Notes under the pieces: model-generated
Told to the model about the DNA's origin: nothing
Database searches by the model: none
The model's input: only the letters and a program-made list of their open reading frames with translations
Made by a program: the position numbers and the translations under genes
Part shown: positions 1 to 46,300 of the stretch, piece by piece
How the letters are laid out: each line of letters opens with the position of its first letter
Numbering within the stretch: position 1 is the stretch's first letter
From: an uncultured Pirellulaceae bacterium
GTDB taxonomy: Bacteria; Planctomycetota; Planctomycetia; Pirellulales; Pirellulaceae
Assembly: GCA_964478065.1 (NCBI GenBank)
Contig: CAYZGP010000003.1
Location: 1,684-65,683, forward strand
Reading direction: 5' to 3'
Length of the DNA stretch: 64,000 nucleotides

Positions 1-1845
1 AATGCCAACGCTGTTGTCGGTGCGGCCATCGCGATTAGTATCGTTGTTTGCAAGACCGCTTTCGACGATGTCAAATACGCCGTCGTTGTCGCTGTCCAGA
101 TCAAGCCGATCAACATATTCGTCTCCGTCGGTGTTGACTTGGCCGAATCCGTCAATGTTTACGTAAGCACTGTTGACTCCATCGTTTTCTGCATAGGTCG
201 CTGCGTCATCATCGTTGGGCGCGATGTAGTCTGCGGTTGTTTGAGCTTCGATGTTGTCAGTGATGCCGTCATTGTCACTATCGAGATCCAGATGATCGGC
301 GATGCCATCGTTGTCACTGTCGGTTCCATTCTCGGCAGTCGTGATCGCATTAGTGAAGTTACTTTGGCGGAAACCAAATCCGAATCCAGCCGTGCTGGCC
401 GCATCGTTCAGTAGCTCGACCTGGAAACGGCTGGTATTCAGGAAGTTCAACTGGATGTCGTCATCAGGATTGTTGACGGTACCACGGAAGCGAACAAAGT
501 CGTCTTCGATCTCGGGAGTGAAACTGCCGCCATCTTCCAACGTATAAGAGTGCAGCGTGGAAAGGTTCGCACCAATTCCTTCGATGCGTTTGACGCTATC
601 GCCGCTTAGCAACGTGTCATCGACATCCCCGAGTCGGATGCTTGTCGTGTTTTCAACAGCCGTTCCATTGCCCGCTCGAATCAACTCAGCAATATCGCCC
701 AGATTGTTTGCTGCTGCAAAATCGGGATCGTCAGGGCTGAAGAATGCGAATTCGAGGCGCACACGTTCTTCGTCACCCAGACGCTCTCCAACACCGCGGA
801 ATTCGATCTTGGGCGATTCGCCCGGACGGGTTGTTTCGGCATTAATCTGAGCGCCGTCGGCAATATCGACGACCGTCACGGCAATCAGATCTTCCCCATC
901 GTTCATGCTGTAAACGACCACATCGCCGACTTCGAGATCGACTTCCCGGTCGTTGTCCGGGTCATCCCCATCCTCGACAACGATTTCACCATTGAAGGCG
1001 TTGGTTGTCGCAAATCCAAAGATCGCATCGGCTCTGAATTCTTTAAAATTCTGGTGGCTAAACTGGCCCGCACTGGCACCCAACCCTTCATCGGCATCCA
1101 GGATTCCATCGTTGTCATCGTCGAGATCGTCCTCGTCGTCCACGCCGTCACCGTCGGTGTCGGCCAAGGTTCCAAGATAAGACTCCGCGGCCAGTGATTG
1201 CGTCTCCACGACACCAACATTCAATTCCAAGTCCCAGTCACCCCCCAGCTCCGCCGCACCAGTCAAATCATCAGACGCCGCGACATCTGCACCGGTAATC
1301 GCGCTGATCGATTCGACAAACTGCTCGCCTTCTGCGTTACCCGCTAGGTCGCAACCGTAGAACAAGAGGTCGGCGTCTTCGGTAAGTGCGTCTGACCAAC
1401 TTGCCAACTGATCAACGTACTTGTTTAGGTTTTCGCTGTTCAGATTTGTGTTACCGAGAAAAACTTCTCCCTCATCACCATGCGAAATGATGTGAATCGA
1501 ATCGTACTTGACCGTTGATTCAGAGAGCAACTGTGTTATCTGTTCGACACCATCGGTGTTCCCATCAAGGATACGAACTTCAAAGTTCCCTTCTGGTTTT
1601 GCCTCAAGAATTTCGGCAAGTAATTGCTCGCTATTCTCAACACCAGCGTCAACGAAAATGAGCTCGCGTGGCCCACGCAATTCGGCTTGTTGCATGGGTT
1701 GAACATGCGCTGGAATTGGATCCGTTGCGTCGTTCTGAGGCAATATAAAGGTTGCATCCGGAACACCGTCGAAGAGAACTCGATCTTCAAGCGATTCAAA
1801 AAGCGAACGGAAAACGAAACCACTATCTTGATTTGGTAAGTGCAT
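1..1845 (-). CDS. Giant secreted/surface protein, 3'-partial: LEPRxLL-like N-terminal motif, DUF4347 domain, TSP3-like acidic Ca-binding repeats
   Basis: Not in the ORF track because it runs off the left edge. Manual translation from ATG 1845 gives [27 protein letters not shown]...[17 protein letters not shown]...[15 protein letters not shown] (DUF4347 hallmark IFVD...HIISHG). Later come [44 protein letters not shown] and [16 protein letters not shown]. The frame is open to position 1. Confidence 0.88.
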
Positions 1846-2392
1846 GCATCTGAGCCTGAAAAGAGATTTGAAAAGCGCAATGGTTGCGGGTGCGCATGTG
1901 TCGCTGGAGCGATAACGACTGAGATATCGAGATTCGTAGAGTGGTAGCTAGAGAGTGTTATCCCTACTGGCGAGACGTTGGTTGCCCATGCTGGAGTCAC
2001 AAAAAACCATGATCAACGACTGACCATTTTCAAACGTTCAATTGCTCCAAGCTTTTAGTTGACGAGAACAATGTTGGTTTACCGCAATCTGGCCTCAATG
2101 TGTCGGGCGAACCTTTTTCAAAATGAATAGATGTTGCTTGTTAGAAGAGCGCGAATCATCTGCCAAAACAAGCGAGTTCCGTTTTCCCCTTTTCCTAAAA
2201 GTTGTGGCGACACGACTTCTAAAGTGTGCTTGCCTTCGTCGCTTCGGTTGGCTGCTTATCGTCTGCCGTTGGATCGGTTTACCCTATTCCTGATGTTTTT
2301 TGGCTACGACTTGTTCGGATTGTGCCGAATACGACTGTGACTCATGTCGTCAAGCTGCCCAACCCGCAATTCATTCTTGTCCAAGAAAAGTA

Positions 2393-4234
2393 ATGTATTC
2401 ACAAATTTCCTCGAGTCGCTGTCGATCTCCGTTTGGATATCTGCTGCTATCCATGCTGACGCTATTGGTTTCAATGCAGACTTGTCTAGCACAACAAGCC
2501 GAATTTAAAAGCTTCGATGCAAACGCTATTTATAGGCAACTTGACGCAAATTCTTTTGCTTCACAACAAACCACGTTAATGCCGTCTTGGTGGGACAGCC
2601 ACGTCGCACGATCACTTCGTGATCAGCAACCAATTCCGACGGACGTTCACACGCTGCTGTTTTTGGCAGTACACAATTCCAATCAAATCAAGATTGCAAA
2701 ACGCGACCCTTTGATTCGTGAGACTGCCGTTCAGGAAGCCGATTCAAATTTTGATTGGGTGAGATATCTCAATACGGCTTGGAATGATACTAGCGAACCG
2801 ATTAGTAGTACGTTGACCGCTGGCGGCACAGCAACTCGGTTCAACGACAATATCTTTCAAGCCACAGGCGGTTTGCGGCGACTGACTCGCTATGGCGGCC
2901 AACTAGACATCAGCCAGCGATTCGGGTGGCAAGATAACAACTCAACATTCTTTGTTCCCGACAATCAAGCAACGGGACAGTTCACTGTTTCTTATACGCA
3001 TCCCTTGTTGCGGGGCAACGGATTTGCGTACAACAACAGCATCGTTTTCTTGGCCAAAATCGACACTGAAGTCGCGGAGCAGGAGTTCATGGCCGCTCTG
3101 CAAGACGAATTGCTCGAAGTGACACGCGGCTATTGGGCACTTTATCTGGAGCGAGCGGTACTGGCTCACCAGATGCGACTTTTTTTAAAAACGCAGCAGA
3201 TCTTTCAAACGCTTGAAGCCCGGCAAGCCGTCGATACTCAACGGACACAATTGATAACTGCTTCAAGTGCTCTGGAAAGCCGTCGAGCAGATCTGATTCG
3301 GGCACGTACTGCTGTGACCAACGCAGAAACGAGATTGCGAGGTATGATCAATGCTCCAGAACTGCAAAACTCGGATCAAGCCGAATTAATCCCATTCGAA
3401 ACTCCTTCTATAAGCCTCTACGAAACTGACTTGAATACAGAAATTCAGGCAGCGCTACAGAATCGCCCAGAAGCCAAAGCAGCAATCAAACAAGTAAAAG
3501 CTGGATCGACTCGGTTAGGAATTGCCCGACACGAATTGTTGCCAGCGCTAAACCTTGTTACGCAGGGATTCGCCAATGGACTTCGAGGGGATAGCGATTT
3601 TGGACAAGCCTTCACAGATCAGTTCTCCGTGGGCCGGCCAAGCTACTCCGTCGGATTGCAATATGAGTTTCCGGTTGGAAACCGACTCGCCAAAGCCCGC
3701 TTATGCCGGCGGCAACATGAACTTGCACAGTTGCAGGATGAATACGCTCGAGCATTACAAATCATAACAACTGAAGTAGATATCGCAGTTCGCGAGCTTC
3801 GCACTTCCTATCTGGAAATCAATGCCAAAAGCAGAGCTCTCGCGGCCGCAGAAGCCGAAGCCAACACGATTGAACAACGTTGGTTAAGAATGATAGACGG
3901 TAACGGAACGGGCGGGCTCAATCTCGAATCGTTGCTGCGATCGCAAGAACGAGTCACCGAAGCCGAACGCGAGTTTGTGACTTCGATTCTGACTTACAAC
4001 TTGGCAATGATCAATCTGAAACGGAGTAACGGCACGCTGCTCCAAACAGAAAACGTGCAGGTGTCTTCCAGTTGTGAAAACGGATGTAAGTCAATCGAAC
4101 TTGATAAAGCCGAACCAGCTGCCGAGCAACCAATCTATCAAGAGGTTGTCCCAAATAGTGCAAGCGGTGTGATTGTAGATGAAACCGTGATTCAAAGTGC
4201 ACCTCAAGGAGCGATTCCTTATTTTCGCCAATAA
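2393..4234 (+). CDS. TolC-family outer membrane channel, paralogue 1
   Basis: OEP-type helical repeats with a signal peptide (MYSQ...LLLSMLTLLVSMQTCLA/QQ). ATG 2393 is preferred over TTG 2300. Adjacent to MFP genes. Confidence 0.85.
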   Translation: MYSQISSSRCRSPFGYLLLSMLTLLVSMQTCLAQQAEFKSFDANAIYRQLDANSFASQQTTLMPSWWDSHVARSLRDQQPIPTDVHTLLFLAVHNSNQIKIAKRDPLIRETAVQEADSNFDWVRYLNTAWNDTSEPISSTLTAGGTATRFNDNIFQATGGLRRLTRYGGQLDISQRFGWQDNNSTFFVPDNQATGQFTVSYTHPLLRGNGFAYNNSIVFLAKIDTEVAEQEFMAALQDELLEVTRGYWALYLERAVLAHQMRLFLKTQQIFQTLEARQAVDTQRTQLITASSALESRRADLIRARTAVTNAETRLRGMINAPELQNSDQAELIPFETPSISLYETDLNTEIQAALQNRPEAKAAIKQVKAGSTRLGIARHELLPALNLVTQGFANGLRGDSDFGQAFTDQFSVGRPSYSVGLQYEFPVGNRLAKARLCRRQHELAQLQDEYARALQIITTEVDIAVRELRTSYLEINAKSRALAAAEAEANTIEQRWLRMIDGNGTGGLNLESLLRSQERVTEAEREFVTSILTYNLAMINLKRSNGTLLQTENVQVSSSCENGCKSIELDKAEPAAEQPIYQEVVPNSASGVIVDETVIQSAPQGAIPYFRQ

Positions 4235-4671
4235 ATCTCCAAGCGTTCAAACCGAATTCGCTTGATCGAATGGCTTGATCGAAATCGATTGACCAGAAAT
4301 CAATTGACCCGGAATTCAAACAATCGAATCAACTGGTACCAACGACTTTGGCTCACATATCTACAAGTAGCGACATGGCCGCCAAGCTACTCCTTTTGGG
4401 TTGCATGTTTTTCCCAGTGCTAGCACTCGTGTGCTTGAACCAGAAATAGAAGCCTCGCAAATACCCTATCTTTCTTGTTTTGTCGGAAATGAATTGGTTA
4501 GGAATTCGTGCGGCGCCGATGAATATTCATAAGCTGGGGCATTTCTAAAGCCCTTGCGACCCGAAAAAACATGGATCAGTGTGAGCCCAATGAGCAAATT
4601 CTCGCTTATGGAAAATCCCCAGCACGCCATTCAATCCTTTCCAGAGCTACTTCTCCCTTTACGAGACCGCA

Positions 4672-6600
4672 ATGTCTAATGCTGTTGCTGCCAACAGGAA
4701 TGCTGGGCCACAAAAGCGCGCCGCAACAACGCGCCGAAATAGCCGTTTAAAGCGTTCGTCTTTGAACGCTTGGCAACATCAAATTCGGAACTTCGAGAGC
4801 CTCGCGTCCAGGTTAACTGAGCAACAGATACGCGATCGAGCCCAGGAGATCCGAGAATCTTATGGCGAACACCAACGGGAGAAACATCTCTTTGAATTTG
4901 GTGGATTAATTGCGGAATCAGTTTTCCGAGCCAACGGTTTCCGCCTCTATGATGTTCAAATAAAAGCGATGGCCGCAGCGACGACCGGGGCCATTGTGGA
5001 AATGCAAACCGGTGAAGGCAAAACCATTGTCACCGGCGCAATCGCCGCAATTCAATCGCTGACCGCACCGTCGGTTCATGTTAGTACGACCAACACCTAT
5101 TTAGCGGGTCGAGATCTTGAAAGCCTGACCGGAACATTTGACCTGCTTGGCATCAGTTATGGTTTGCTTCCAGAGGAAAACGACGAAGCTGAATCGCGTC
5201 GTGTCTACACCAAGCAAATCGTTTATGGCCCAGGTTATCAATACGGGTTTGATTATCTTCGCGATCAAATGTATCTCCGCGACAATCGTCAGTCGAAGCT
5301 TGGTGTGGCGACCATCAACCGGATTCGAGGGCTTGATCCTTACAAGAAACTTATCCAACCACGAGATCATCATGTAGCGCTGATTGACGAAGCCGATAGT
5401 GTGATGATTGACGAAGCGATGACTCCGTTGGTCATCAGTTTGCCCACCAAGGAAACGGAAGATCCGACCCCTTATTTGATCGCCAAGAAAATCGCATCGA
5501 ACTTTACTGAAGGAATCGAATACACGATCACGTTTCCTTCAAAGAAAATTGATGTTACCGACAAAGCCAACCAGCTTGCTCATGATGAGATTGCCAACAA
5601 GCACGATTTGCATCTCGCCCGGCCATGGCGAGTTTACATCGTCAATGCTTTGCGAGCCGAAAAAGCGTTTTTACGGGATGTCGACTATGTTGTCGTAGGC
5701 GGCGAAGTCCAGATCGTTGACCAGTACACTGGCCGCATTCTTCCAGATCGAAGTTGGCAGGATGGACTTCACCAAGCCGTTGAAGCCAAAGAAAACGTTC
5801 CCATCCAACCCGGTCGTGAGTCGACCACTCAGGTTACGCGCCAACGTTACTTGCAAATGTACGATCAGCTTGCTGGTTTGACCGGAACAGCGGCTTCGGT
5901 GAGCAAGGAATTTCAATCGATTTATAATTGCGGCGTTGTCGAAATCCCGACCAATAAAAAGTGTCTTCGAAAGATTTTAAAAACACGATTTTTTGCAAGC
6001 CTTGAAGCCAAATTGGCTGCCATCACCGAGGACGTTTTAAAGCGGCATGCAACTGGCCAACCGATTCTGGTCGGTACAAAAACGATTCGCGAAAGCATCG
6101 AAGCCTACGATTGCCTGGTCGCAAAAGGACTGAGTCCAACGTTGCTTAACGGCGTACAGGATCAAGAAGAAGCCGATATCGTTGCTCAAGCCGGTGCCGC
6201 CGGTTCCATTACCATCGCGACCAACATGGCAGGACGAGGAACGGATATCAAAATCAGCCCTGCGTCGCTTGATGCAGGTGGTCTGCATGTCATTGGAATT
6301 AGCCCCAACAGTTCCAAACGAATCGATCGTCAGTTGGTTGGAAGAGCAGCACGACAAGGCCAACCTGGATCAGCACAGTTTTTTGCTGCCGCAATGGACC
6401 CAATTTTTGTTGATAACGAATCACCGCTTTGCAAACAACTTCGTCGGCGAGCCAACTCAAAAGGTGAAACGGGTGACTTTTCACGAGACCTTAGTGCACT
6501 CCAATCTCTAATTGAAGCTCGTAATTTCAAACAAAGACAAGACATGATCCTTCGCGATATTTGGATGGACTCAGTTCGCGAATCAATTGAAAAAGACTAA
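4672..6600 (+). CDS. secA: Secondary, C-terminally truncated SecA-family ATPase (SecA_DEAD + preprotein-binding + helicase C); not the housekeeping copy
   Basis: Motifs MQTGEGKT, IDEADSVMIDEA, VQIVDQYTGR...WQDGLHQAVEAKE, GLTGTA, GQPILVGT, IATNMAGRGTDI, GGLHVIG, RIDRQLVGRAARQGQPGSAQFF. Only 642 aa, ending just after IEARNFKQRQDM. Confidence 0.92.
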   Translation: MSNAVAANRNAGPQKRAATTRRNSRLKRSSLNAWQHQIRNFESLASRLTEQQIRDRAQEIRESYGEHQREKHLFEFGGLIAESVFRANGFRLYDVQIKAMAAATTGAIVEMQTGEGKTIVTGAIAAIQSLTAPSVHVSTTNTYLAGRDLESLTGTFDLLGISYGLLPEENDEAESRRVYTKQIVYGPGYQYGFDYLRDQMYLRDNRQSKLGVATINRIRGLDPYKKLIQPRDHHVALIDEADSVMIDEAMTPLVISLPTKETEDPTPYLIAKKIASNFTEGIEYTITFPSKKIDVTDKANQLAHDEIANKHDLHLARPWRVYIVNALRAEKAFLRDVDYVVVGGEVQIVDQYTGRILPDRSWQDGLHQAVEAKENVPIQPGRESTTQVTRQRYLQMYDQLAGLTGTAASVSKEFQSIYNCGVVEIPTNKKCLRKILKTRFFASLEAKLAAITEDVLKRHATGQPILVGTKTIRESIEAYDCLVAKGLSPTLLNGVQDQEEADIVAQAGAAGSITIATNMAGRGTDIKISPASLDAGGLHVIGISPNSSKRIDRQLVGRAARQGQPGSAQFFAAAMDPIFVDNESPLCKQLRRRANSKGETGDFSRDLSALQSLIEARNFKQRQDMILRDIWMDSVRESIEKD

Positions 6601-6701
6601 CAAGCTTTCAGGTGTAGTTGCAAAAACGAAATCCGATACGAACCCATTCCTCATTTCAACGTTGCACTTTTTATCCCCCAACCCAGAAACGGAAATTGAC
6701 A

Positions 6702-7610
6702 ATGAACCCCACTCAACCGCGAAATGTTTCGTTCGCCGTTCTGATGGTCATGACTTTTTTAAGTGCGACCGTTGTCAGTGCCACAAACTCTTTTGCACAG
6801 AATCTTCACAATGGTCGGATCACGAAGAGTTTTACCGAGCCGATAGAGAAAAGCATCGCCGCCAGTCCCGAAGTCGGCATCATCGCCGAGTCGTTTGTCA
6901 AAGAAGGCGATCGAGTTCGCGTGGGAGACCGATTGTGTGCAATCAACCACAACGTCCTCGCCGAGTCGTTGGTGATCGCGGTGGCTCGATCTGAGTCAAC
7001 GTCACGACTTGATGCCGCTACTTCCCAAATGGAGCTGGCTAAATCTCAACTTGATGCCATCGAGTCTCTGATCAAAGGCGGACATACGAACAAGTTCGAG
7101 GTCGAGCAAGCAGGTGCCGAGTATCAGAGAGCGTTTGCTGAATTCAGAGCTGCCCAAGACGAGTTGAAACTTGCGAAACTCGAAGTCAAACGAATTCAAG
7201 CTCAAATTAACGATCGCATCATCACCAGCCCAATCAACGGCTTTGTCACCGAGATCCACAAACAGCTTGGCGAAAACATCTCCAATAACGAACCGCAGTA
7301 CGCAACGGTTGTCCGGGTGGATGAATTGAAAGTTCGTTTCTATCTGGATTCAGCGACCTTGCGCTCGTCGAAAGTCGGTGACACAGTATTGGTAAAGGTT
7401 GGAAATTCAAAATTGCGAAAGCCAGCCGTTGTGACTTACGTTTCTCCAGTTATTGACCCAGACAGTGGACTCGGGGCACTGCACTGCAAAATTGATAATC
7501 GGGATTTGCAGATTCAAAGCGGAATTATTTGTTTTTGGAACGAAGACTCAAATTCCGAACCGACTTCTGCCGTCCAGGCATCACGAAAATCTCTACAGCT
7601 TAATCGTTGA
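6702..7610 (+). CDS. Efflux RND/HlyD periplasmic adaptor (MFP) with Sec signal peptide
   Basis: Lipoyl halves (AASPEVGIIAESFVKEGDRVRVGDRL; ITSPINGFVTEIHKQLGE), coiled-coil hairpin and beta-barrel VTYVSPVIDPDSG. ATG 6702 gives signal MNPTQPRNVSFAVLMVMTFLSATVVSA. Confidence 0.85.
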   Translation: MNPTQPRNVSFAVLMVMTFLSATVVSATNSFAQNLHNGRITKSFTEPIEKSIAASPEVGIIAESFVKEGDRVRVGDRLCAINHNVLAESLVIAVARSESTSRLDAATSQMELAKSQLDAIESLIKGGHTNKFEVEQAGAEYQRAFAEFRAAQDELKLAKLEVKRIQAQINDRIITSPINGFVTEIHKQLGENISNNEPQYATVVRVDELKVRFYLDSATLRSSKVGDTVLVKVGNSKLRKPAVVTYVSPVIDPDSGLGALHCKIDNRDLQIQSGIICFWNEDSNSEPTSAVQASRKSLQLNR

Positions 7611-7670
7611 ACCCATCCCCACGTCTTCTTATCGACATCGGCCTCACCCACAGGTCCAAGGTTAATTGCA

Positions 7671-9578
7671 ATGACTACTAGTGACAGCCAATCCCATCAG
7701 ACTACCAGTGTACCGGGCAAAGTCCCGTTGCATCGCAAGTATCGTCCGGCCGCTAAGCCTAAAGAAAAACCACAGAAGCTGGGACAAACCGTTGACCAGC
7801 AAGTCTTACAGGTCGTTTCTGGCAACTTCAGTGAAAACGTCGTCCGGACAAAATTTATTCAAATGGCGTTGGCATCGGCTTCTGCGATCGGAGCCTGTTA
7901 TGTTTGCAAAGACCAGCAGGATTTGTGGACTCCATCGGTTGCTGTACCAACCGCCGGCCGCGTTCCCGAGCGGCGCAGCTTTGCAGAAGAGTTTTCAGAA
8001 AAATGTGAACAGTTCACCAAGTCAACCAATGTTCAAACTGCAGTTCTGAATTCGCTGGGCGGGCTATATGGTTTGTTTGCGCCGATCCGGCCAAGGAATT
8101 CCGAACCAGAACTCTTGTTGATCGTCGTTAAGAATCAAAAAAATGCATTGTTGGCAGTTCAGGTCGTTCAAAAAATTGCTGCAGGCTTGCAGATTTGGCT
8201 CAATGGCCGTGATTCAGCCGACGCCGATTGGCAAGTCCAAGCCTTGGCGTCCATCGTCGAGATCGTTGCCAAAGTTGAAAACCAGGAAACGAACAAAGCC
8301 GCTGCAGAAGAGATTGCCAATGCGTTGGCCAATCGACTTGGGTGCAATAGCGCCGCCGTTGGCTTAAACGTCAAAGGGCGAATGAAATTGCAGGCGATTT
8401 CGGGCGTTGGCAAAATCGACCATGGCTCTGCCTCAAGCCGTGACTACCTTCAGACACTCGTCGAAAGTGTGACACGCAAGCAGCCCGGTGTCTTTCCAGC
8501 AACGAGCGAACATAACAATTTCCTGCTCCAAGCCCACAAGCAGCTTGGCTCAACCGTCCAGACCGAAGCCGTTTTCACTCAACCCCTGGTCACCGAAGAC
8601 GACGAAGTTCTGGGCTCGATTGTGCTGACCGGCCAACGTGGTTTGCTTTATTCAAGTCAATTCAAACGATTCAATGCCACCGCTGGACCGGCTTTGGCCA
8701 ATTCATTACGCGTCGTTAACAAGGTTAAGCAAACAACGCTGACCAAAACCAAATCGTATTTAAAACGAAAACTTTCACTGGCGAAACAACTGTTTATTCT
8801 CAGTGCGTTGATCGGATTTGCATTCTTGATGTGTCTTCCAATCACGTACCGAGTTCGTTGCAATTGTGTAACCGAGCCCGTGTCACGCCGTTTTGCGGTC
8901 GCTCCTTTCGATGGACAAATCACAGCAGGACACGTGGAATCTGGTGACTTGGTTACTGCCGGTCAGGTATTGGCTGAAATGGACGACCGGACGATTAACT
9001 GGGAGTTGTATGGGATCACGGCTGAGCGTCGGCAGTCTTTGATTACGCGCGACGTAGAACTTTATGATCGCAATGTGCCAAAGACGATGCTTGCTGAGCT
9101 CGAATACGATCGGTTGATTTCCGAGGAAGCGATTCTCGAATATCGACGAGACAACTTGAGTATCAAAAGCAAGATCGATGGAGTTGTGTTGAGCGGCTCA
9201 CTTGAACGTGCCGAAGCTGCTTCCGTCGAAACCGGCCAAGTCCTTTTCGAAATCGGCCCATTGAAACCAATGCGGGTAGAAGTTGCGATTCCAAGCACCG
9301 AAATTGCCCAGATCAAAGTCGGATTCGACGCGAAAATCTGGATCGATGGTCAAGAAGACGAACCGCTTGTCGGCAGCATCAAGCGAATTCATCCACGCAG
9401 TGAAACACGAGATGCCAAAAACGTTTTCATTGCGGAACTCGAATTCGACAACGAAGACGAACGGCTTCGTCCTGGCATGAAAGGCAGCGTGCGAATCGAT
9501 GGCGAAAAACGATCGCTTGGCTGGAGTATGTTTCACAAACCAATGAACTACGTTCGCTCGCGTTTGACGTGGTGGTAG
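7671..9578 (+). CDS. GAF-like domain(s) fused to HlyD-family MFP
   Basis: About 370-aa N-terminal region with GAF-like segments (ANALANRLGCNSAAVGL...; FTQPLVTEDDEVLGSIVL), one TM helix, then VAPFDGQI...VESGDLVTAGQVLAEMD, IKSKIDGVV and RLRPGMKGSVRI. Confidence 0.8.
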   Translation: MTTSDSQSHQTTSVPGKVPLHRKYRPAAKPKEKPQKLGQTVDQQVLQVVSGNFSENVVRTKFIQMALASASAIGACYVCKDQQDLWTPSVAVPTAGRVPERRSFAEEFSEKCEQFTKSTNVQTAVLNSLGGLYGLFAPIRPRNSEPELLLIVVKNQKNALLAVQVVQKIAAGLQIWLNGRDSADADWQVQALASIVEIVAKVENQETNKAAAEEIANALANRLGCNSAAVGLNVKGRMKLQAISGVGKIDHGSASSRDYLQTLVESVTRKQPGVFPATSEHNNFLLQAHKQLGSTVQTEAVFTQPLVTEDDEVLGSIVLTGQRGLLYSSQFKRFNATAGPALANSLRVVNKVKQTTLTKTKSYLKRKLSLAKQLFILSALIGFAFLMCLPITYRVRCNCVTEPVSRRFAVAPFDGQITAGHVESGDLVTAGQVLAEMDDRTINWELYGITAERRQSLITRDVELYDRNVPKTMLAELEYDRLISEEAILEYRRDNLSIKSKIDGVVLSGSLERAEAASVETGQVLFEIGPLKPMRVEVAIPSTEIAQIKVGFDAKIWIDGQEDEPLVGSIKRIHPRSETRDAKNVFIAELEFDNEDERLRPGMKGSVRIDGEKRSLGWSMFHKPMNYVRSRLTWW

Positions 9579-9764
9579 TGGAGCAATTTGGGATCCGGAA
9601 TTTGGAAACCCAAAATGGAATGCGTTAGAAACATGACGCTGCCGCCTGCCGGACGAGTTTCTGGTTGGACTGGACGAAACAACGACTAAAGGATTTGCGA
9701 ATAAAGAGTTGGTGTACTTGAGAAGATGATTGCTCACTTCGACTCCACGTTCGTTTTATAAAAA

Positions 9765-11948
9765 ATGCTAAACGAAAAAACATTTGAATTCAGCCAGGCT
9801 CGCCTTCGGCTCAAAGACAGTCTTCGGTTCACGATGCGTCAAAGTGGCGATGCGGTTGAATATTTGGTCGAAGACGAAGTCACGGGGCGATTCTTTCGTG
9901 TTGGGTTACCTCAGTATACGTTTCTGACGATGTTGGACGGTCGACGAACGGTAAGTACCGGACTGATGAAGACCGCGACGCTGTTGCGCGAACATGCCAT
10001 CGATGAAACCGAAGCTGCCAATCTTTGTAAATGGGCAATCGAATCGGGACTTGTCGAATCGGAAACTGGTAACTCAACGGCTCGGCGAATTGAGCAACAT
10101 GAGTTGCAGCAAAAACAAAAGATGATGTCGTATCTCAATCCTATGATGATGCGAATTCCGCTTTTCAATCCCGATCCAATCGTCACCACTCTCTCGCGAT
10201 TCATTGGTTTCGTCGTCAGCCCGATCGGCGCTGTTATCTGGTTGACGGTTTGCCTCTATGGATTTTTTCAGCTGGCAAACAACTGGGACGCGTTTTACAC
10301 GAACCGCGTCAACTCGTTCGGTGCGGCTGATTTCGCTTGGATCGCATTGACATGGATCGTGCTGAAATTGATTCACGAAATTGCCCACTCATTAGTTTGT
10401 AAACAGTTCGGCGGGCGCGTTCAGTCGTGCGGGATGTTATTCCTGTTGATGATTCCAATGCCCTATGTCGATGTGACCAGTTCATGGCGATTCGACAATA
10501 AATGGAAACGGATTTTGACGTCCGCTGCCGGAATGATGAGCGAAGTTTTTCTCGCAGCGATCGCGTGTTGGGTGTGGGCAACCAGCTCTCCGGGGCCACT
10601 TCAGTATCACGCCGGCAACGTCATCATCTCCGCGACGTTGCATACTTTGTTGTTCAATATCAACCCGTTGATGCGGTTCGATGGTTATTACATGTTGGCC
10701 GACTGGTTGGAGATTCCCAACCTCTCGACGCACGGAAGAAGCTGGCTCAAAGGCGTTTTCAAACGAGCTTATTTTGGCAACAAAGCCCAACCGCTTAAGG
10801 AAACAGGATTTCGCGGACTGGCCGTGAGAGCTTACGGTATCATGGCGATGATGTGGTTTTTTACCATCGCTATCGGCCTGTCGCTTGCCGCATCGAGTTT
10901 CATGGAGGGCTTTGGGTTGTTGGTCGCCGCGATCGGATTGGTACTGTGGGTCGGGGTTCCGTTATATAGTCTTTGCAAGTACACCGCCGTTGGCACCAAA
11001 ACAGAAAAACCCAATCGGCCATGGTTTGCTGGGGCAATGACACTCACGCTGCTGCTGGTAGCGGGATTTCTTTATTGTTGTCCGAGTCCTTCGGTCGTTT
11101 CCGCACCGGTTGTGATTGACTACGAACCGCTTTCGGTTGTCCGCGCCAATTCAACCGGATTTGCGAAGTCGATTCATGTGGTCGATGGACAAAGCGTCAA
11201 CCAAGGCGACCTGTTGGTTACTTTGGAAAATCCTGATATCGAACACGAGCTAAAATCTTTGATGATCGACATCAAGATCTCACAACTACGCTCCAATACT
11301 CTGTTTAGTCAGGGCGAAATTAGCCAAGTTCAATTGGAGCAAAAATCGCTTGATTCGATGTTGAAGCGAAAGTCCGAACTGGAAACGCGAATCGCAGAGC
11401 TTAAAATTTACGCTCCACAATCGGGTAACGTTTTGGCGCGTGATCTTGAATCGCTAACTGGAAGGCACTTTACTCCTGGTACTGAAATTCTCTCCATTGC
11501 AGAACCGGGTGCACTTCACGCGATTGCATTGACTCGCCAAACAGATATCGAGTGGGTGGCCGAAAACCCGGAAGCCGATATTGAGCTAGTGGTTTGGGGG
11601 CGGCACGAAAACGATTTGCTTGTCGGCAAGATCAAGCATATTAATCCTCGTGCCCGAGACGATTTACCTCACGAGGCATTCGCGGCTTCAGTTGGTGGCC
11701 CATTGGCTGTCGTAAGTCGGGGGCAAGTTGAAGAGCTAGAGGACCAAAAAGATGAAGGCGAGATGATGCTAACCCACCCCCGTGTTCCAGTCGAAATCGA
11801 ACTCAAAAAAGAAGATCGAGTGAGCTTGGTCGCAGGACAAACAGGGCAACTGATTGTCCGCTCGCGGAACCAAAACATGGGCAGCTACCTGGCTAATAAC
11901 CTGGTCCGGTTCGTTCGCGAAAACAATTTCCGAACGCACGGGCTATAA
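9765..11948 (+). CDS. PqqD/RRE-like domain + M50 (site-2) metalloprotease-like membrane domain + HlyD/lipoyl adaptor fusion
   Basis: HEIAH (HExxH) inside a TM segment and NINPLMRFDGYY (NPDG-like), several TM helices. C-terminal VRANSTGF...VVDGQSVNQGDLLVTLEN and IYAPQSGNV. N-terminal YLVEDEVTGRFFRVGLPQYTFLTMLDG wHTH-like segment. Confidence 0.85.
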   Translation: MLNEKTFEFSQARLRLKDSLRFTMRQSGDAVEYLVEDEVTGRFFRVGLPQYTFLTMLDGRRTVSTGLMKTATLLREHAIDETEAANLCKWAIESGLVESETGNSTARRIEQHELQQKQKMMSYLNPMMMRIPLFNPDPIVTTLSRFIGFVVSPIGAVIWLTVCLYGFFQLANNWDAFYTNRVNSFGAADFAWIALTWIVLKLIHEIAHSLVCKQFGGRVQSCGMLFLLMIPMPYVDVTSSWRFDNKWKRILTSAAGMMSEVFLAAIACWVWATSSPGPLQYHAGNVIISATLHTLLFNINPLMRFDGYYMLADWLEIPNLSTHGRSWLKGVFKRAYFGNKAQPLKETGFRGLAVRAYGIMAMMWFFTIAIGLSLAASSFMEGFGLLVAAIGLVLWVGVPLYSLCKYTAVGTKTEKPNRPWFAGAMTLTLLLVAGFLYCCPSPSVVSAPVVIDYEPLSVVRANSTGFAKSIHVVDGQSVNQGDLLVTLENPDIEHELKSLMIDIKISQLRSNTLFSQGEISQVQLEQKSLDSMLKRKSELETRIAELKIYAPQSGNVLARDLESLTGRHFTPGTEILSIAEPGALHAIALTRQTDIEWVAENPEADIELVVWGRHENDLLVGKIKHINPRARDDLPHEAFAASVGGPLAVVSRGQVEELEDQKDEGEMMLTHPRVPVEIELKKEDRVSLVAGQTGQLIVRSRNQNMGSYLANNLVRFVRENNFRTHGL

Positions 11949-12141
11949 CCGACGCGCCGACATCCATCATTCGAATCAACCCCGTTCTGGGGTATCCGAA
12001 GCAGGCAAGTTGCAAATTTACAATGTTGCTTGTCTCTTTCACCGCTCGGCATCTAATTTTGCTTCCAGCTACCAGTGTCGCAAGTGGAAGCTTTGAATGG
12101 CCGATTTCGGCTTTGCGTTCAGCGTGAGTTAACTTTTGCTG

Positions 12142-12407
12142 ATTGATTGGGTGTTGGCGAATCCAACGGTTGTGCGTCGCTTTTTGAAAGCCAATCGTTT
12201 GCGTTTGGAGCTTCACCAGCCCGCCGCCGCAGTGAGTGCTTTAGCAACGCCTCTATATTTTCACGACGTCATCAATCAGTGGCTTTGTGTCTTGTTCTTC
12301 GTTGGGTTCAGCGCATGTTAATTTGTGCCAATTGATTGGTGTTGGCGAATCCAACAGTTGTGCCGTAGCTTTTTGCAAGCCAATCGTTTGCGTTTGAAAC
12401 TCATCAG
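12142..12407. repeat. Two imperfect ~77-bp direct repeats (12142-12219 and 12331-12407) with conserved internal hairpins
   Basis: Copy 1 ATTGATTGGGTGTTGGCGAATCCAACGGTTGTGCGTCGCTTTTTGAAAGCCAATCGTTTGCGTTTGG. Copy 2 ATTGATTGG-TGTTGGCGAATCCAACAGTTGTGCCGTAGCTTTTTGCAAGCCAATCGTTTGCGTTTGA. Confidence 0.85.
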
Positions 12408-12697
12408 TTTTCGTACATGCTAACGCAGATGCAATTGTTCAGAGGGTGCGGGTATTGAGGGTCAAAGAGGAGATTACTCCTAATCGAAAATGATAGGTGG
12501 TTGAGTTTTTCGAATGTAGCGCTGATGTTGAATGCAGCTGTTCGAATGCCGTGATACATAGAGGAATTGGCAAATCTATCACAAGCAAATTGACGATTAG
12601 AATCCTACCTCAAAAGCTCCGGGGTTTAGCACTCGTCAAATTCAGATGCTTACTCTTCTCACCGAACTCAACAAACTTTTTCCCACCTTGGAATTTT

Positions 12698-14500
12698 ATG
12701 AAAATGCGAATTCTAATTGCCGCCATAGCAGCGCTCGGTTGTGTTTCCGCTTCTGTGGTCGCTCAGCAACCACAGTTCAAGCAATTTGATGCAGTTGATG
12801 TGTTTCGTCAGATGGATAGTAGTGTCCAGGAGCAACCTTTGGTCCCGTCTTGGTGGGACACCAACGTTGCTCAGTCGTTAAGAGATCAACCGCCAATTCA
12901 AGCAGACGTTCATACACTGCTTTATTTGGCGGTTCATCACTCCAATCAAATCAAGATTGCCAAACGCGATCCGCTGATTCGTGAAACGGCGATTCAGGAA
13001 GCTGACTCAAATTTCGATTGGGTTCGCTATCTCAATACAGCCTGGAACGATACGAGTGAACCGATCAGCAACACGTTGACAGCGGGCGGAACGGCGACTC
13101 GATTTGTTGATAACGTCTTTCAGGGTACTGGTGGAATTCGCCGGAACACTCGTAGTGGTGGTCAGCTTGATATTAGTCAGCGATTCGGCTGGCAGGACAA
13201 CAACTCAACGTTCTTCGTTCCAGACAATCAAGCGACCGGCCAATTCACTGTTTCTTATTCTCATCCTTTGCTTCGTGGCAACGGCGTGGCGTACAACACG
13301 AGTATCGTTTTTCTCGCACAAGTTGATTCCGAGGTTGCCCAACAGGAATTTCTGGCGACGTTGCAAGACGAGCTGTTGGAAGTCACTCGCAGCTACTGGA
13401 CTCTATACCTTGAGCGTGCTGTGTTGGCTCACAGAATGCGGTTGTTCTTGAAGACTCAGGAAATTTACGGCACGCTTAAGGCACGCCAAACGGTTGATAC
13501 CCAGGGGACGCAAGTGATCACGGCAGCAAGTGCCTTGGAAGGCCGTCGAGCTGACTTGATTCGTGCTAGAACGGCTGTGACCAATGCCGAAACTCGACTG
13601 CGTGGTATGATCAATGCCCCGGAACTACAAAATTCAGATCAGGCAGAGTTGATCCCGGTTGAAATGCCTTCAACGCAATTTTTTCGACCTGATTTACAAG
13701 CTGAAATTCAAACGGCGCTTCAAAATCGCCCGGAAGTCATGGCCGCGATCCGTCAAGTCAAAGCTGGATCGGTACGGTTGGGAGTCGCTCGACATGAATT
13801 GCTTCCTGCACTTAACCTCGTCACACAGCTTTATAGTAGTGGCCTGCGAGGTAACAGCAATTTTGGTGGTGCGTTTACTGATCAATTTTCTGTTGGAAGG
13901 CCAAGCTATTCTGTTGGGCTTCAGTACGAGATGCCAGTAGGAAATCGCCTTGCCAAAGCTCGACTTTGCCGCCGGCAACATGAACTTGCCCAGTTGCAAG
14001 ACGAGTACGCCCGTGCGTTGCAGATCGTTCAAACCGAAGTTGACATTGCAGTTCGAGAACTCAATACGGCGTATTTGGAAATTGGTGCTAAAAGCCGAGC
14101 TTTGGCAGCAGCCGAAGCAGAAGCTAACACAATCGAACAGCGCTGGTTGCGAATGGTTGATGGAAGCGGTACAAGCGGACTCAACCTCGAGTCGCTATTG
14201 CGTTCGCAAGAGCGAGTCACTGAAGCCGAACGTGAATACGTAACATCGCTTCTGACTTATAATCTTGCTATGATCAATCTCAAGCGAAGCAATGGAACTT
14301 TGCTTCAGACAGAAAACATTTCGGTATCCAATGATTGCGAGAATGGTTGCAACGGTATCCAGGTTGACAAACTTGGCCCGGCTGCGACAAACCAACCGGC
14401 CATGATCGGTCAGGATCAGTTGCCGGCCGAAGAAAGCATCATGGAAGTCAGTTCTCTTCCGCAAAATGATGAACTTGAAGCAAGCTACTTTCGCAGATAA
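12698..14500 (+). CDS. TolC-family outer membrane channel, paralogue 2
   Basis: Long stretches identical to paralogue 1. Signal peptide MKMRILIAAIAALGCVSASVVA/QQ from ATG 12698, preferred over GTG 12497. Confidence 0.87.
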   Translation: MKMRILIAAIAALGCVSASVVAQQPQFKQFDAVDVFRQMDSSVQEQPLVPSWWDTNVAQSLRDQPPIQADVHTLLYLAVHHSNQIKIAKRDPLIRETAIQEADSNFDWVRYLNTAWNDTSEPISNTLTAGGTATRFVDNVFQGTGGIRRNTRSGGQLDISQRFGWQDNNSTFFVPDNQATGQFTVSYSHPLLRGNGVAYNTSIVFLAQVDSEVAQQEFLATLQDELLEVTRSYWTLYLERAVLAHRMRLFLKTQEIYGTLKARQTVDTQGTQVITAASALEGRRADLIRARTAVTNAETRLRGMINAPELQNSDQAELIPVEMPSTQFFRPDLQAEIQTALQNRPEVMAAIRQVKAGSVRLGVARHELLPALNLVTQLYSSGLRGNSNFGGAFTDQFSVGRPSYSVGLQYEMPVGNRLAKARLCRRQHELAQLQDEYARALQIVQTEVDIAVRELNTAYLEIGAKSRALAAAEAEANTIEQRWLRMVDGSGTSGLNLESLLRSQERVTEAEREYVTSLLTYNLAMINLKRSNGTLLQTENISVSNDCENGCNGIQVDKLGPAATNQPAMIGQDQLPAEESIMEVSSLPQNDELEASYFRR

Positions 14501-14612
14501 CGTGGCATTTGTTAGGGCACGACACTTATTCCGTGAACAAGTCAAAAAAGTGTCAGTGATGAAGTGGTTGGCGTTTGTCTGCGCTTAAAAAAAGCATCCA
14601 GTCAAAAAGCGT

Positions 14613-15326
14613 TCAATTACTTTTCAAAAGCTCGTCAACGAACTTGGGCACAATTTCGGTTGCGGCTCCGTATTCACCACGATCAAACGCACTTCCGTTG
14701 TCGGCTTCTTCCAAGTTCAACGTCACAGTATCAGCACCGCATTGGTTGGCGACGCTTACGAAACCGGCGGCCGGATAAACGGCGCCGGACGTGCCAATTG
14801 AAATGAACAAATCACATTCCTGTAGTGTTGCTTGAATGCGCTCCATTTCAAACGGCATCTCTCCAAACCACACAATGTGTGGCCGCAGCGTACCGGTTTG
14901 CGAACAGCAATCGCAAACGTCTTCAACGCTCAAGTCTGTTCGCACTTCTGATGCGAGTTCACTGTAGATGCATCGTTTTTTCAACAACTCGCCATGGATA
15001 TGAATCAGGTTTTGACTTCCGGCGCGTTCATGAAGATCATCCACGTTCTGCGTTACCAGCAACAGATCGCCAGAAAATTCCTGCTCCAATCGCGCCAACG
15101 CTTTGTGGGCGGCATTTTCTTTGACCGAATCGGACAACAATTGCTGGCGGCGTTGGTTGTAAAATCTCAGAACTAATTCTGGATTGCGCGCGAATCCTTC
15201 CGGAGAAGCGACTTCTTGCACGTCGTGGTTTTCCCATAGCCCGTTGCTGTCGCGAAATGTTTTGATGCCAGATTCTGCCGAGATTCCTGCTCCGGTCAAA
15301 ATGACGATTCGTTTGTATTTGCTCAT
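14613..15326 (-). CDS. cobB: NAD-dependent protein deacylase (sirtuin class III, likely desuccinylase)
   Basis: GAGISAESGIKTFR, FYNQRR (YxxR acyl pocket), TQNVDDLHERAG, HGEL, RPHIVWFGE, GTSGAVYPAAG. Confidence 0.95.
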   Translation of the reverse strand: MSKYKRIVILTGAGISAESGIKTFRDSNGLWENHDVQEVASPEGFARNPELVLRFYNQRRQQLLSDSVKENAAHKALARLEQEFSGDLLLVTQNVDDLHERAGSQNLIHIHGELLKKRCIYSELASEVRTDLSVEDVCDCCSQTGTLRPHIVWFGEMPFEMERIQATLQECDLFISIGTSGAVYPAAGFVSVANQCGADTVTLNLEEADNGSAFDRGEYGAATEIVPKFVDELLKSN

Positions 15327-43364: not shown

Positions 43365-46300
43365 ATGCCCCGATCAAAAAATTCACCATCTAAACGACTA
43401 CGGAACAATTTAAAAAGCAACAATCGTCCTGGTTTCTCGCGCAAAGACGCGCACTCGCAAAGCCTACGATTTGAACGACTTGAACCAAGGCATTTTTTAA
43501 CAGGCGTCGGCAATCCTGTTTTTCACCTAGAAGTCGACTTCGGGATCCACCTTGAAGATGGCGTGGTCGCCGAGTGGCATGACAGTCAATCGGGAAATGA
43601 TCATGAATTGGTAGCCAACGGAACACGGCGTCCTGCCTTTGGTACGGTACAAACGCCATCGGGACTTGATGCGATCCGATTTGATGGCGTTAACGACCGT
43701 TTGATTCAAACGATCGATAGTGGATTTATTGATCTGCCAGACGGGAACAGTGATCGGACAATTTTTGTTGTAGCTCAATTTCACGGAGCCAGTTGGGACG
43801 CCGGTATTGGTTTCGGCGCCGGAGCGCCCAACGAAACGTTTGGAGTTGCAGTTGAGCGCGAGGGGAGTGCAACCGAAGGGCAGTTTTTGGTGCAAGGATG
43901 GGGAGGTGGAAATGATTTTATCTCTGACGAGTCGGGATTTACCGATGCAGGTGGTGGGCAATCAACGGGCTGGGTGATTTTGGCAGTCACGCACGACGCC
44001 GATAACGCAGGTGATTCGACTCAATTTTACAGGACTACCTCAATCGATGCGGGACAAGAGATTTTGTCTTTCGACCATGACTACAACACCAACCTTTCTA
44101 ACGGTGGATTGTTGAATGGCAATTCGGCTTCCAGGTTTGTCATCGGCGAGGAGATCAGTGAACTCGGTTTTACGGAAATAGATGTTGCCGCGATTTTGGT
44201 TTATGACGAAGCGCTTGACGCTGTAGATCGCGGCGGCGTCGAAGAATATTTGCAACAAAAATATCTTGTTGGTGACATCCAAAATCAATTGGTCGCCGGT
44301 GGTTTAGATCAACCGACGAGTCTGGAAGTTCTTCCTGATGGCCGTATTTTGGTGTTGGAAAAAGAAGGCGATATTAGGATTGTTGATCCAACTCAGGATG
44401 TTCCAACGGCCGAACCCTATCTGTCCATCACCAATGTTAATTCCGAAAGGGAACGCGGGCTGACGGATATTGCCTTGGATCCTGATTTCGAAAACAACAA
44501 CTATTTTTACGTTTACTATCACACCGACGGTGCCGACGGTGATATACCACGCGCTCGGTTGTCTCGATTTACGAACTTGGGAGACAATGCAACGCTGGCG
44601 AGTGAAGTCGTTCTTTGGCAAGACCTTGACAATTCAAATCTCAGTCCCAATCACTGGGGTGGTGGATTGGATTTTGGGCCAGATGGGAAACTTTACTTGA
44701 CGATCGGCGACAAGTTTTTAGATCCTACGGACGCACAAGATCCACAAAGCTATGGTGGCAAAATTCTTCGTCTCAATACTGATGGAAGTGTTCCGGCGGA
44801 CAATCCGTTTGTTGGGGACGACCCTGATGGTTTTCTTGATGAGATTTGGGCGTATGGTTTGCGGAATCCATTCCGTGCCAATTGGGATATTCCAACAGGC
44901 CGATTTTTTATCGGTGATGTCGGCGGCAATGTTCAGGAAACCGCTTTCGAGGAAATCAATCTCGGAGTCGCTGGAGCGAATTATGGTTGGCCAGGTGAAG
45001 AAGGCTTCAATACCAACGCAGAGTTTACCGATCCAATTTTTGCATATGACCATTCTGAGCCTACTCCCAATGGCGGTGCGGTCGCTGGCGGTATCGTTTA
45101 TCGAGGTGAATTGTTCTCTGAGCAATTTGAAGGAGCGTATTTCTTTGGCGATTTTGTACAGGGGTGGATTCGCTATTTGAGGTTTGACGAAAACGGCGGC
45201 GTAATTGACGCGGATCCTTCGACGCCGCAGTTGGACGCATTTGAACTTAGCGACGAGCCGATTGCTCCCGTGGCGATTGAAGTTGGCTCGAGCGGCGAGT
45301 TATTGTACCTCGACTTTTTTACCGGCGAATTGCGCCAATTTGTTTCTGGAAATTTGGCTCCAGAAATCGTTGAAGCTTCTTCTGATATCGACCAGGGGTT
45401 GGCGCCGTTGGTTGTCAATTTTACAGGGCTGGCCGAGGATCCTGAGGGAGACGATATCCAATATGTTTGGGATTTTGGTGATGGGAATCAAGCATTTGGA
45501 GCGAACGTTTCGCACACCTACGCAGCCAATGGATTTTACGAAGCGACACTTCGCGCCTCCGACGGATTTCAAACAACCGTCTCCGAGCCTGTAGCAATCA
45601 CCGTTGGCGAAGCACCAGCAGTGACGATTGTGACTCCATACGAAGGGCAGTTTTTTATCGCTGGCGAAACAATTTCGCTGTCTGGTTTGGCAACGGATGA
45701 TGGGGAGTTAACCGAAGAAAGCTACAGTTGGACGATTCGGTTCCTTCATAACGATCACACTCATCCGGTGCTTGATGGCGCTACAGGTTCAAATATCACT
45801 TTCGAGATTGATAGGAGGGGACATGATTTCTCTGACGAAACTGGATTCGAAATTGAATTAGTCGTTACCGATTCAGATGGCATCTCAACGACAGAAACCG
45901 TCGCCATATTCCCAGACAAAGTCGACGTGACATTCGACACAACCTTCCCCGGAGATTTGACTTTTACGTTGGATGGTGTCCCGCGTGAAGGTTCGTTCAT
46001 CCACGACACTTTGATCAATTTCGAACACACGATCAGTGTTCCTGTATTTGCCAATTACAACGGCGACGAGTATGAGTTTGTCGCATGGTCCGATGGATCA
46101 ACGGATTCAAGTTATGTATTCGACGTGCCTGACAGCGATATAACCCTAACAGCGATCTATCAAAACAACGGGAGTTCCACATCTCTGCCGACTGACGACC
46201 TTGTTTTACGTTTGGATGCACAGAACGGCGTGACGGTTGATGGCACCGGAACGGTGACTGCCTGGACAGATCAATCGGGGTTTGCGAATTCATTGGCTGC

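Follow-up and report, generated by a model that had tools for sequence, protein, structure and literature searches.

In a 64,000-nt stretch of DNA from an uncultured Pirellulaceae bacterium (hereafter the window, whose positions serve as coordinates throughout), one open reading frame (ORF) encodes a single chain in which a predicted RiPP recognition element (RRE; RiPP, peptide made ribosomally and modified post-translationally) is followed by an M50 site-2 protease (S2P) and a periplasmic adaptor of the membrane fusion protein (MFP) type. We consider it reasonably, if not strongly, probable that this fusion protein serves an export machine linked to TolC and lacking an ATP-binding cassette (ABC) transporter, as the subunit that receives the signal and acts as leader peptidase. 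A broader proposal, which we put forward more tentatively, is that the fusion belongs to a distinct and unnamed Gram-negative secretion system, in which (i) an N-terminal LE-x-R-x-L-L/F tag addresses giant surface proteins, (ii) the RRE reads this tag and the S2P removes it, and (iii) a motor-only SecA drives the chain through a three-adaptor duct to TolC, with no ABC transporter; the fusion would then act as receptor, peptidase, and part of the conduit.

The called start of the fusion ORF is right, because its N-terminus (MLNE.TFEFxQA.L) is kept in 29 homologues of 57–84% identity. More than 1,560 homologues of the protein were found, mostly 720–730 residues long. With residues 1–440 as the query, 2,918 clusters (50% identity) were recovered at E ≤ 1e-30, and the best 150 of them are mostly 700–780 residues long, so that the fused form is the rule. 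A pattern scan covering one genome per species located a full-length relative in at least 566 species, including Planctomycetota (with Brocadiia), Verrucomicrobiota, Gammaproteobacteria, Saprospiraceae, and Desulfobulbus. The best NCBIfam match is NF041824 (daptide biosynthesis intramembrane metalloprotease; E = 4e-45), which aligns residues 32–405 of the fusion with profile positions 17–370 of 379 and scores 154.4 bits, about half of its 300-bit cut-off.

This match leads to the closest known relative, the daptide peptidase MpaP. Ren et al. 2023 (bioRxiv 10.1101/2023.03.08.531785) reported RRE-S2P fusions in daptide clusters, with MpaP as an RRE-dependent intramembrane leader peptidase. Like the fusion, MpaP carries an N-terminal RRE fused to an M50 S2P, and the two are homologous over fusion residues 32–405. 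However, MpaP has ~380 residues and no periplasmic adaptor, whereas ~290 adaptor residues are appended in the fusion; further, the RiPP cluster around MpaP encodes short precursors along with modification enzymes and ABC transporters, whereas the fusion is surrounded by adaptors, TolC, a SecA-like ATPase, and giant proteins. The fusion is best classed with the RRE-S2P leader peptidases, as a variant with an acquired periplasmic adaptor, and as a core subunit of a cassette that had been described in silico.

The N-terminal domain is, judging by the NF041824 alignment, its predicted fold, and PqqD hits on its paralogues, an RRE. An AlphaFold2 (AF2) model of residues 8–128, built from 60 diverse sequences (23–83% identity), reaches a predicted local distance difference test score (pLDDT) of ~91 over residues 8–97 and has the order strand-strand-strand-helix-(short strand)-helix-helix, i.e., a β3-α3 winged helix-turn-helix. 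When this model was compared with the PDB in Foldseek, the top six matches were leader-bound lasso-peptide RREs (TbiB1, 5v1v/5v1u; B1, 6jx3), with probabilities of 0.99–1.00 and target TM-scores of 0.64–0.68, and the next meaningful ones were SuiB, LynD, and CteB, which are RRE-bearing RiPP enzymes. In a six-frame translation of the whole genome, the two best hits of the PqqD Pfam model (PF05402) fell in the N-terminal regions of two fusion paralogues, at 21.9 and 19.1 bits (below the cut-off of 23.4), and map to residues 33–97 of the fusion. An initial annotation of this DNA had proposed a β3-α3-like segment here, and counted the absence of a predicted RRE fold as part of what would refute its reading; both the AF2 model and the Foldseek matches do predict this fold.

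The central part of the protein is matched by Peptidase_M50 (PF02163) over residues 195–366, with 28.7 bits, marginally above the cut-off of 27.2. Direct reading finds both motifs that the initial annotation had pointed out, HEIAH at 10374–10388 and NPLMRFDG at 10662–10685. According to AF2, HEIAH (residues 204–208) lies inside a predicted helix (188–214) that is followed by a β-hairpin (222–235), and the NxxPxxxxDG motif is at the end of helix 278–299. Conservation was assessed in 84 sequences (75 from other genomes, this copy, and its eight paralogues in the same genome), which extend down to 26% identity: His204, Glu205, Asn298, Pro301, Asp306, and Gly307 are present in all 84, and His208 in 83. 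Since the zinc site is conserved down to 26% identity, the motifs are no chance pattern, and this conservation argues for retained catalysis, that is, for a working metalloprotease rather than a relic. Hydropathy, together with loops rich in Lys and Arg on the inner side, predicts seven transmembrane (TM) helices with the N-terminus inside and the C-terminus outside; the RRE and the active site would therefore face the cytoplasm, and the C-terminal ~290 residues would be periplasmic. With such a topology, the leader could be recognized and cleaved on the cytoplasmic side, and the adaptor could still reach TolC.

The C-terminal part had been described as a lipoyl/hairpin adaptor, which is well founded. 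HlyD_D23 matches residues 447–629 (42.3 bits; cut-off, 30) and HlyD_3 residues 547–630 (36.8 bits; cut-off, 22.2), with a subthreshold Biotin_lipoyl_2 match at residues 468–488, and the AF2 secondary structure comprises a lipoyl domain, an α-hairpin, a β-barrel, and a C-terminal helix. Foldseek retrieved EmrA, MexA, AcrA, and MacA with this part (E = 4e-10 to 1e-7), and the model for the type I secretion HlyD subfamily, TIGR01843, gave 31.9 bits, below its 208-bit cut-off. Between the RRE and the first TM helix, the linker contains an LNP motif, whose Asn125 and Pro126 are found in 71 and 63 of the 84 aligned sequences, respectively. Taken together, Pfam, AF2, Foldseek, and the conserved motifs uphold the three-domain anatomy of an RRE, an intact M50 active site, and an adaptor.

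The fusion gene ends a same-strand row of genes for TolC, a SecA-like ATPase, a small adaptor, and a long adaptor, and is itself followed by a second tolC. Among the 80 best loci of fusion relatives, the order DUF4347 protein, TolC, SecA-like ATPase, small adaptor, long adaptor, and fusion recurs in most, with the long partner adaptor directly upstream of the fusion gene, and this order spans Planctomycetota, Verrucomicrobiota, and the gammaproteobacterium Arenicella. The initial annotation had placed all steps in a single protein, which overstates the case, as the fusion gene almost always travels with two other adaptors. The match of the SecA-like protein ends at about positions 473–529 of the 787-position SecA model, apart from a short later piece, and TIGR00963 stays below its cut-off; SecA motor domains without scaffold or wing have been reported in giant proteins (West-Roberts et al. 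2023). The 80 related loci contain a single ABC-like ORF, ~7 kb from the fusion gene; in this genome, all nine fusion genes are free of such ORFs to a distance of 15 kb, and Pfam and NCBIfam detect neither an ABC domain nor a C39 peptidase in the fusion protein.

The locus type has been in print since 2015. The passages of Kamneva, Poudel & Ward 2015 (PLoS One, PMC4452313) that concern a "Secondary SecA_DEAD" locus describe, in silico, genes for a secondary SecA_DEAD protein and for Peptidase_M50/HlyD, HlyD, GAF/HlyD, and OEP proteins, without an ABC transporter, in Planctomycetes, Verrucomicrobia, and Proteobacteria; there, the ATPase is suggested to be SecA, M50 is considered a possible pore, and the biological role is called completely unknown. 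The paper also names an operon of this kind in Methylorubrum extorquens AM1 (META1p2399-2402). This is the locus type studied here, and a term search of the paper yielded no RRE, and no tagged giant proteins in the role of cargo. Hence neither domain pair is new, RRE-S2P being known from MpaP and M50-HlyD from the 2015 locus, and the novelty that the initial annotation saw in an architecture built from unrelated parts does not hold, given the NF041824 match and the published operon of M50-HlyD and SecA-like genes. In the open-access papers and preprints searched, none placed an RRE in an M50-HlyD protein or linked the cassette to tagged cargo, and none described an export route for LEPR-XLL-type giant proteins.

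The genome itself (6.19 Mb in 218 contigs) holds an unusually large expansion of the cassette, with nine fusion paralogues (contigs C3, C6, C7 [two], C15, C33, C54, C83, and C155) and five truncated SecA genes. There are seven SecA-like genes in total, namely one canonical, one of ~845 residues, and the five truncated ones of ~630–670 residues. Most of the fusion paralogues adjoin adaptors, and five adjoin a truncated SecA.

We propose giant tagged proteins as the likelier cargo, in place of the substrates of RiPP or peptidase-containing ABC transporter (PCAT) type that the initial annotation had in mind, on the strength of (i) the tags of neighboring proteins, (ii) genome co-occurrence, and (iii) the lack of a conserved small precursor. 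The candidate in the window is a DUF4347 protein that is transcribed divergently from the operon, has no Sec-type hydrophobic signal, and bears an LEDRVLF tag core near its N-terminus, on which NF012209 (LEPR-XLL) scores 14.8 bits, below the cut-off of 17. Equivalent neighbors in other genomes have the same tag 13–63 residues from the called start, with the consensus h-h-E-x-L-E-[D/E/P]-R-[V/I]-L-[F/L/M/Y]-[D/S]-A-x-P in 31 neighbors. The genome under study contains 17 tagged ORFs (defined as at least 200 residues long with the motif in the first 120), and the other 1.27 million residues contain the motif only four times. Of the 17 ORFs, seven are no more than 10 kb from a fusion paralogue, a zone that makes up 2.7% of the genome (binomial P = 1.7e-7), and at least six of the nine paralogues have a tagged large ORF within 10 kb. 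As an independent test at the genome level, co-occurrence was examined in an even draw of 151 Gammaproteobacteria, a group in which the distribution of either feature is patchy: with DUF4347 present, the fusion is present in 14 genomes and absent from three; with DUF4347 absent, it is present in nine and absent from 125. The association (14/17 versus 9/134 genomes; odds ratio 65, Fisher P = 2e-11) is a statistic that ignores phylogenetic non-independence and the horizontal transfer of whole islands, which lessens its weight for our reading.

We also compared the leader variant (LE[DE]RxLF of the DUF4347 type versus LEPRQxL) with the paralogue class. The pattern is compatible with co-variation, and we dropped it as independent evidence because whole islands are co-inherited.

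On this basis, we suggest the following mechanism. The RRE would capture the N-terminal tag as an added β-strand, as RREs do with RiPP leaders, and present the captured chain to the M50 active site, where the tag would be removed at the cytoplasmic face. A precedent for this step is MpaP, an RRE-S2P whose substrate is a soluble peptide with a leader. The fused adaptor, together with the two other adaptors, would form a periplasmic duct to TolC, and the separate SecA-like motor would supply ATP-driven pushing. Thousands of bacteria (Planctomycetota, Verrucomicrobiota, and many Proteobacteria) encode very large extracellular LEPR-XLL-type proteins without a recognizable Sec, Tat, or type I signal, and a 2026 preprint reports LEPRxLL N-termini on giant Chlorochromatium proteins. 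If the fusion reads and clips the tag, the purpose of the tag would be explained and the 2015 gene cluster would gain a function; the RRE module, up to now associated with small natural-product peptides, would then have been recruited for protein secretion. The interpretation in the initial annotation is partly supported: its logic, that a single chain recognizes a leader, cleaves it, and connects to TolC, is right.

Several observations weigh against the proposed export role. For the RRE, the Foldseek E-values are modest (4e-3 at best), neither PF05402 nor any other Pfam model matches residues 1–125 at E ≤ 10, and sequence searches of the PDB with the single protein, a 60-sequence N-terminal profile, and a full-length profile returned only adaptor/lipoyl matches, with no RRE or S2P. 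The full-length AF2 model (pLDDT 68; predicted TM-score, pTM, 0.34) leaves inter-domain placement too uncertain for judging RRE docking or the geometry between the RRE and the active site. The substrate of a classical S2P is a membrane helix, and the LE-x-R-x-L tag is none. No known protein-conducting channel is present in the cassette, four of the nine paralogues in this genome have no nearby SecA-like gene, and some family members are orphans beside chemotaxis or TamB genes. With respect to cargo, 10 of the 17 tagged ORFs are not near any cassette, and nine of the 23 fusion-bearing Gammaproteobacteria lack DUF4347. Moreover, leader binding, cleavage, and export by the fusion protein are inferred from computation.

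One rival explanation is RiPP or bacteriocin maturation and export, in which the RRE-M50 part would trim the leader of a small modified peptide, as in MpaP or YydH, and the adaptor would pass the peptide to TolC. The nearest named families are indeed RiPP peptidases (NF041824 and YydH/LiaK), RRE domains are typical of RiPP pathways, and tandem ~107-nt elements with short similar ORFs lie just downstream (12106–12401). However, the score of 154 bits is half of the NF041824 cut-off, the operon has neither modification enzymes nor an ABC exporter (a Pfam scan of the operon and flanking genes found no daptide-type enzymes), and the conserved neighbor is a giant protein. No small-ORF family occurs in more than four of the 80 loci, the short ORFs in three intergenic gaps include nothing convincing as a precursor, and the tandem element has no further copy in the genome and no conserved counterpart in the 80 related loci. 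With no shared small-ORF family and a tandem element unique to the locus, a RiPP-type precursor is unlikely, and we rate this explanation as quite improbable. The label "efflux RND transporter periplasmic adaptor subunit" (RND, resistance-nodulation-division), given in public annotation to a Mariniblastus homologue, would make the fusion an ordinary efflux-pump adaptor, in agreement with its HlyD and RND_mfp domain hits. This annotation disregards the N-terminal 440 residues and is at odds with the domain content. Every adaptor equivalog model scores far below its cut-off, and no RND, major facilitator superfamily (MFS), or ABC pump lies near the fusion gene, which makes this explanation barely tenable.

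A regulatory or quality-control protease deserves more attention, as it is the least improbable of these rivals, albeit still unlikely. It would perform regulated intramembrane proteolysis or clear jammed or mis-assembled components, such as the partner adaptor or stalled cargo, without removing an export leader. Classical S2Ps such as RseP and SpoIVFB act in signaling and membrane quality control, and the N-terminal region of the partner adaptor is large, cytoplasmic, and possibly sensory. On the other hand, the conserved cassette contains no anti-sigma factor or extracytoplasmic function (ECF) sigma factor, the presence of an RRE implies that a linear peptide tag is recognized, and the paralogue count tracks the tagged cargo genes. 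A mainly structural M50 domain, whose helices would form an inner-membrane pore or anchor with proteolysis secondary or absent, appears slightly less likely again. The cassette has no other polytopic membrane protein, and a pore is the proposal already made in the passages of Kamneva et al. 2015 (PMC4452313). Yet essentially all 84 sequences keep the catalytic Glu, the zinc ligands, and the NxxPxxxxDG motif, which argues for retained catalysis. The monomeric seven-helix S2P fold is not known to conduct polypeptides.

The proposed tag-reading exporter also bears comparison with three known systems. The initial annotation had called the fusion PCAT-like, which is a fair functional analogy: as in CvaB-CvaA-TolC, an N-terminal leader would be cut at the cytoplasmic face and the product would leave through an MFP-TolC duct. 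The composition does not bear the name out, since the fusion has no C39 cysteine peptidase and no ABC transmembrane or ATPase domain, no ABC gene lies near its paralogues, and there is no double-glycine leader; in place of these are a zinc S2P, recognition by an RRE, an adaptor fused to the protease, and a separate SecA paralogue as the ATPase, if one is used. Type I secretion of giant adhesins (HlyBD-TolC; LapBCE-LapA) is similar in that an MFP and TolC stand beside very large repeat-rich surface proteins without Sec signals, but it uses an ABC transporter and usually a C-terminal signal, whereas the present locus has three distinct adaptors, an N-terminal tag, and an intramembrane protease; of the type I trio, it has MFPs and TolC but lacks the ABC transporter. 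YydH/LiaK (NF058609) is likewise an M50-type membrane protease that acts on a ribosomal peptide, but it has no adaptor, and its alignment with the fusion, a weak one over residues 163–319 (E = 1e-5; 25 bits against a cut-off of 225), includes no RRE match.

Table 1. Positions of the fusion gene, its parts, and its neighbors in the window (aa, amino acids)
Feature	Position	Strand	Basis
RRE / M50 S2P / periplasmic adaptor fusion gene, 727 codons	9765..11948	+	Open frame (ORF list)
RRE (PqqD-like winged-helix) domain, aa ~18-97, predicted cytoplasmic	9816..10055	+	AF2, Foldseek, NF041824, PqqD on paralogues
Linker: long helix aa 105-123, LNP motif aa 124-126, short strand before TM1	10056..10220	+	AF2 secondary structure
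M50/S2P membrane domain, seven predicted TM helices, aa ~153-438	10221..11078	+	Pfam PF02163, AF2 helices, hydropathy, positive-inside count
HEIAH zinc-binding/catalytic motif (H204, E205, H208), in TM2	10374..10388	+	Direct reading, conservation
NxxPxxxxDG (N298-I-N-P301-L-M-R-F-D306-G307), third zinc ligand Asp, end of TM4	10656..10685	+	Direct reading, conservation
Periplasmic adaptor (MFP) part, aa 445-727	11097..11945	+	Pfam, Foldseek, AF2
Adaptor α-hairpin, two ~27-residue helices, aa 490-544	11232-11396	+	AF2
Large DUF4347 protein (candidate cargo), 5' part; 1,176 aa or more on its contig	1..1845	-	Pfam DUF4347, E = 1e-53
LEDRVLF tag core, aa 19-25 of DUF4347 protein	1771..1791	-	N-terminal sequence
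TolC-family outer-membrane channel 1	2300..4234	+	Pfam OEP, E = 5e-23
Truncated SecA-like ATPase, 642 aa, motor and preprotein-binding domains	4672..6600	+	Pfam SecA_DEAD, SecA_PP_bind, P-loop_SecA
Small third adaptor, 330 aa	6618..7610	+	Pfam/NCBIfam RND_mfp and HlyD hits; conserved position in related loci
Partner adaptor, 635 aa, ~370-aa cytoplasmic N-terminal region, one TM helix at aa ~374-392	7671..9578	+	Pfam HlyD_3 and HlyD_D23, hydropathy
TolC-family outer-membrane channel 2	12497..14500	+	Pfam OEP, E = 9e-22

The two tolC genes are closely similar and bracket the operon. In both, the longest frame has a long N-terminal extension, and both carry a CENGC motif and YFRQ/YFRR at the C-terminus; judging from its sequence, the second probably starts at the MKMRIL... 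signal peptide near 12698. Scanning 1700–14700 for promoters and terminators gave nothing above shuffle expectation. The tandem elements (12106–12212 and 12295–12401) are 189 nt apart and 76–96% identical by segment; they occupy the 550-nt gap before the second tolC and are overlapped by the short similar ORFs (M[LP]IDW...FL[KQ]ANRLRL). A second large protein in the window (2,306 residues, 43365–50285) has a basic N-terminus followed by RFERLEPRHFLTG, which is a classic LEPR-XLL tag; as it lies 31 kb from the cassette, it may be cargo served in trans. Pfam returned no match for the N-terminal segments of the two large proteins, and NCBIfam none beyond the subthreshold NF012209 match to the DUF4347 protein. 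At the extreme C-terminus of the fusion, an RTHGL motif (residues 723–727, 11931–11945) has its Arg, His, Gly, and Leu invariant in the 29 homologues of 57–84% identity, with the Thr replaced by Ser in a few; the motif is not kept in the wider fusion family or in the paralogues of this genome.

Among the related loci, two contain orphan family members at ~10001–12130 without adaptor, SecA-like, or TolC neighbors, namely L059 (Candidatus Venteria ishoeyi) and L080 (a Thiotrichales metagenome-assembled genome). In L059, chemotaxis/two-component genes precede the orphan and a TamB-like gene follows it; the same genome encodes a DUF4347 protein at another place. Locus L008 has, besides the upstream SecA-like gene, a second one (13266–15323) that follows the fusion gene directly downstream. 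In loci of Verrucomicrobiota and Saprospiraceae, a conserved small protein of ~85–120 residues (...ILPVHTR[IVM]A[ML]...), absent from the window, is encoded directly upstream of the long adaptor (L046, 6151–6477; L057, 7557–7808; L070, 7616–7963; L075, 7725–8093), and may be an accessory or chaperone component.

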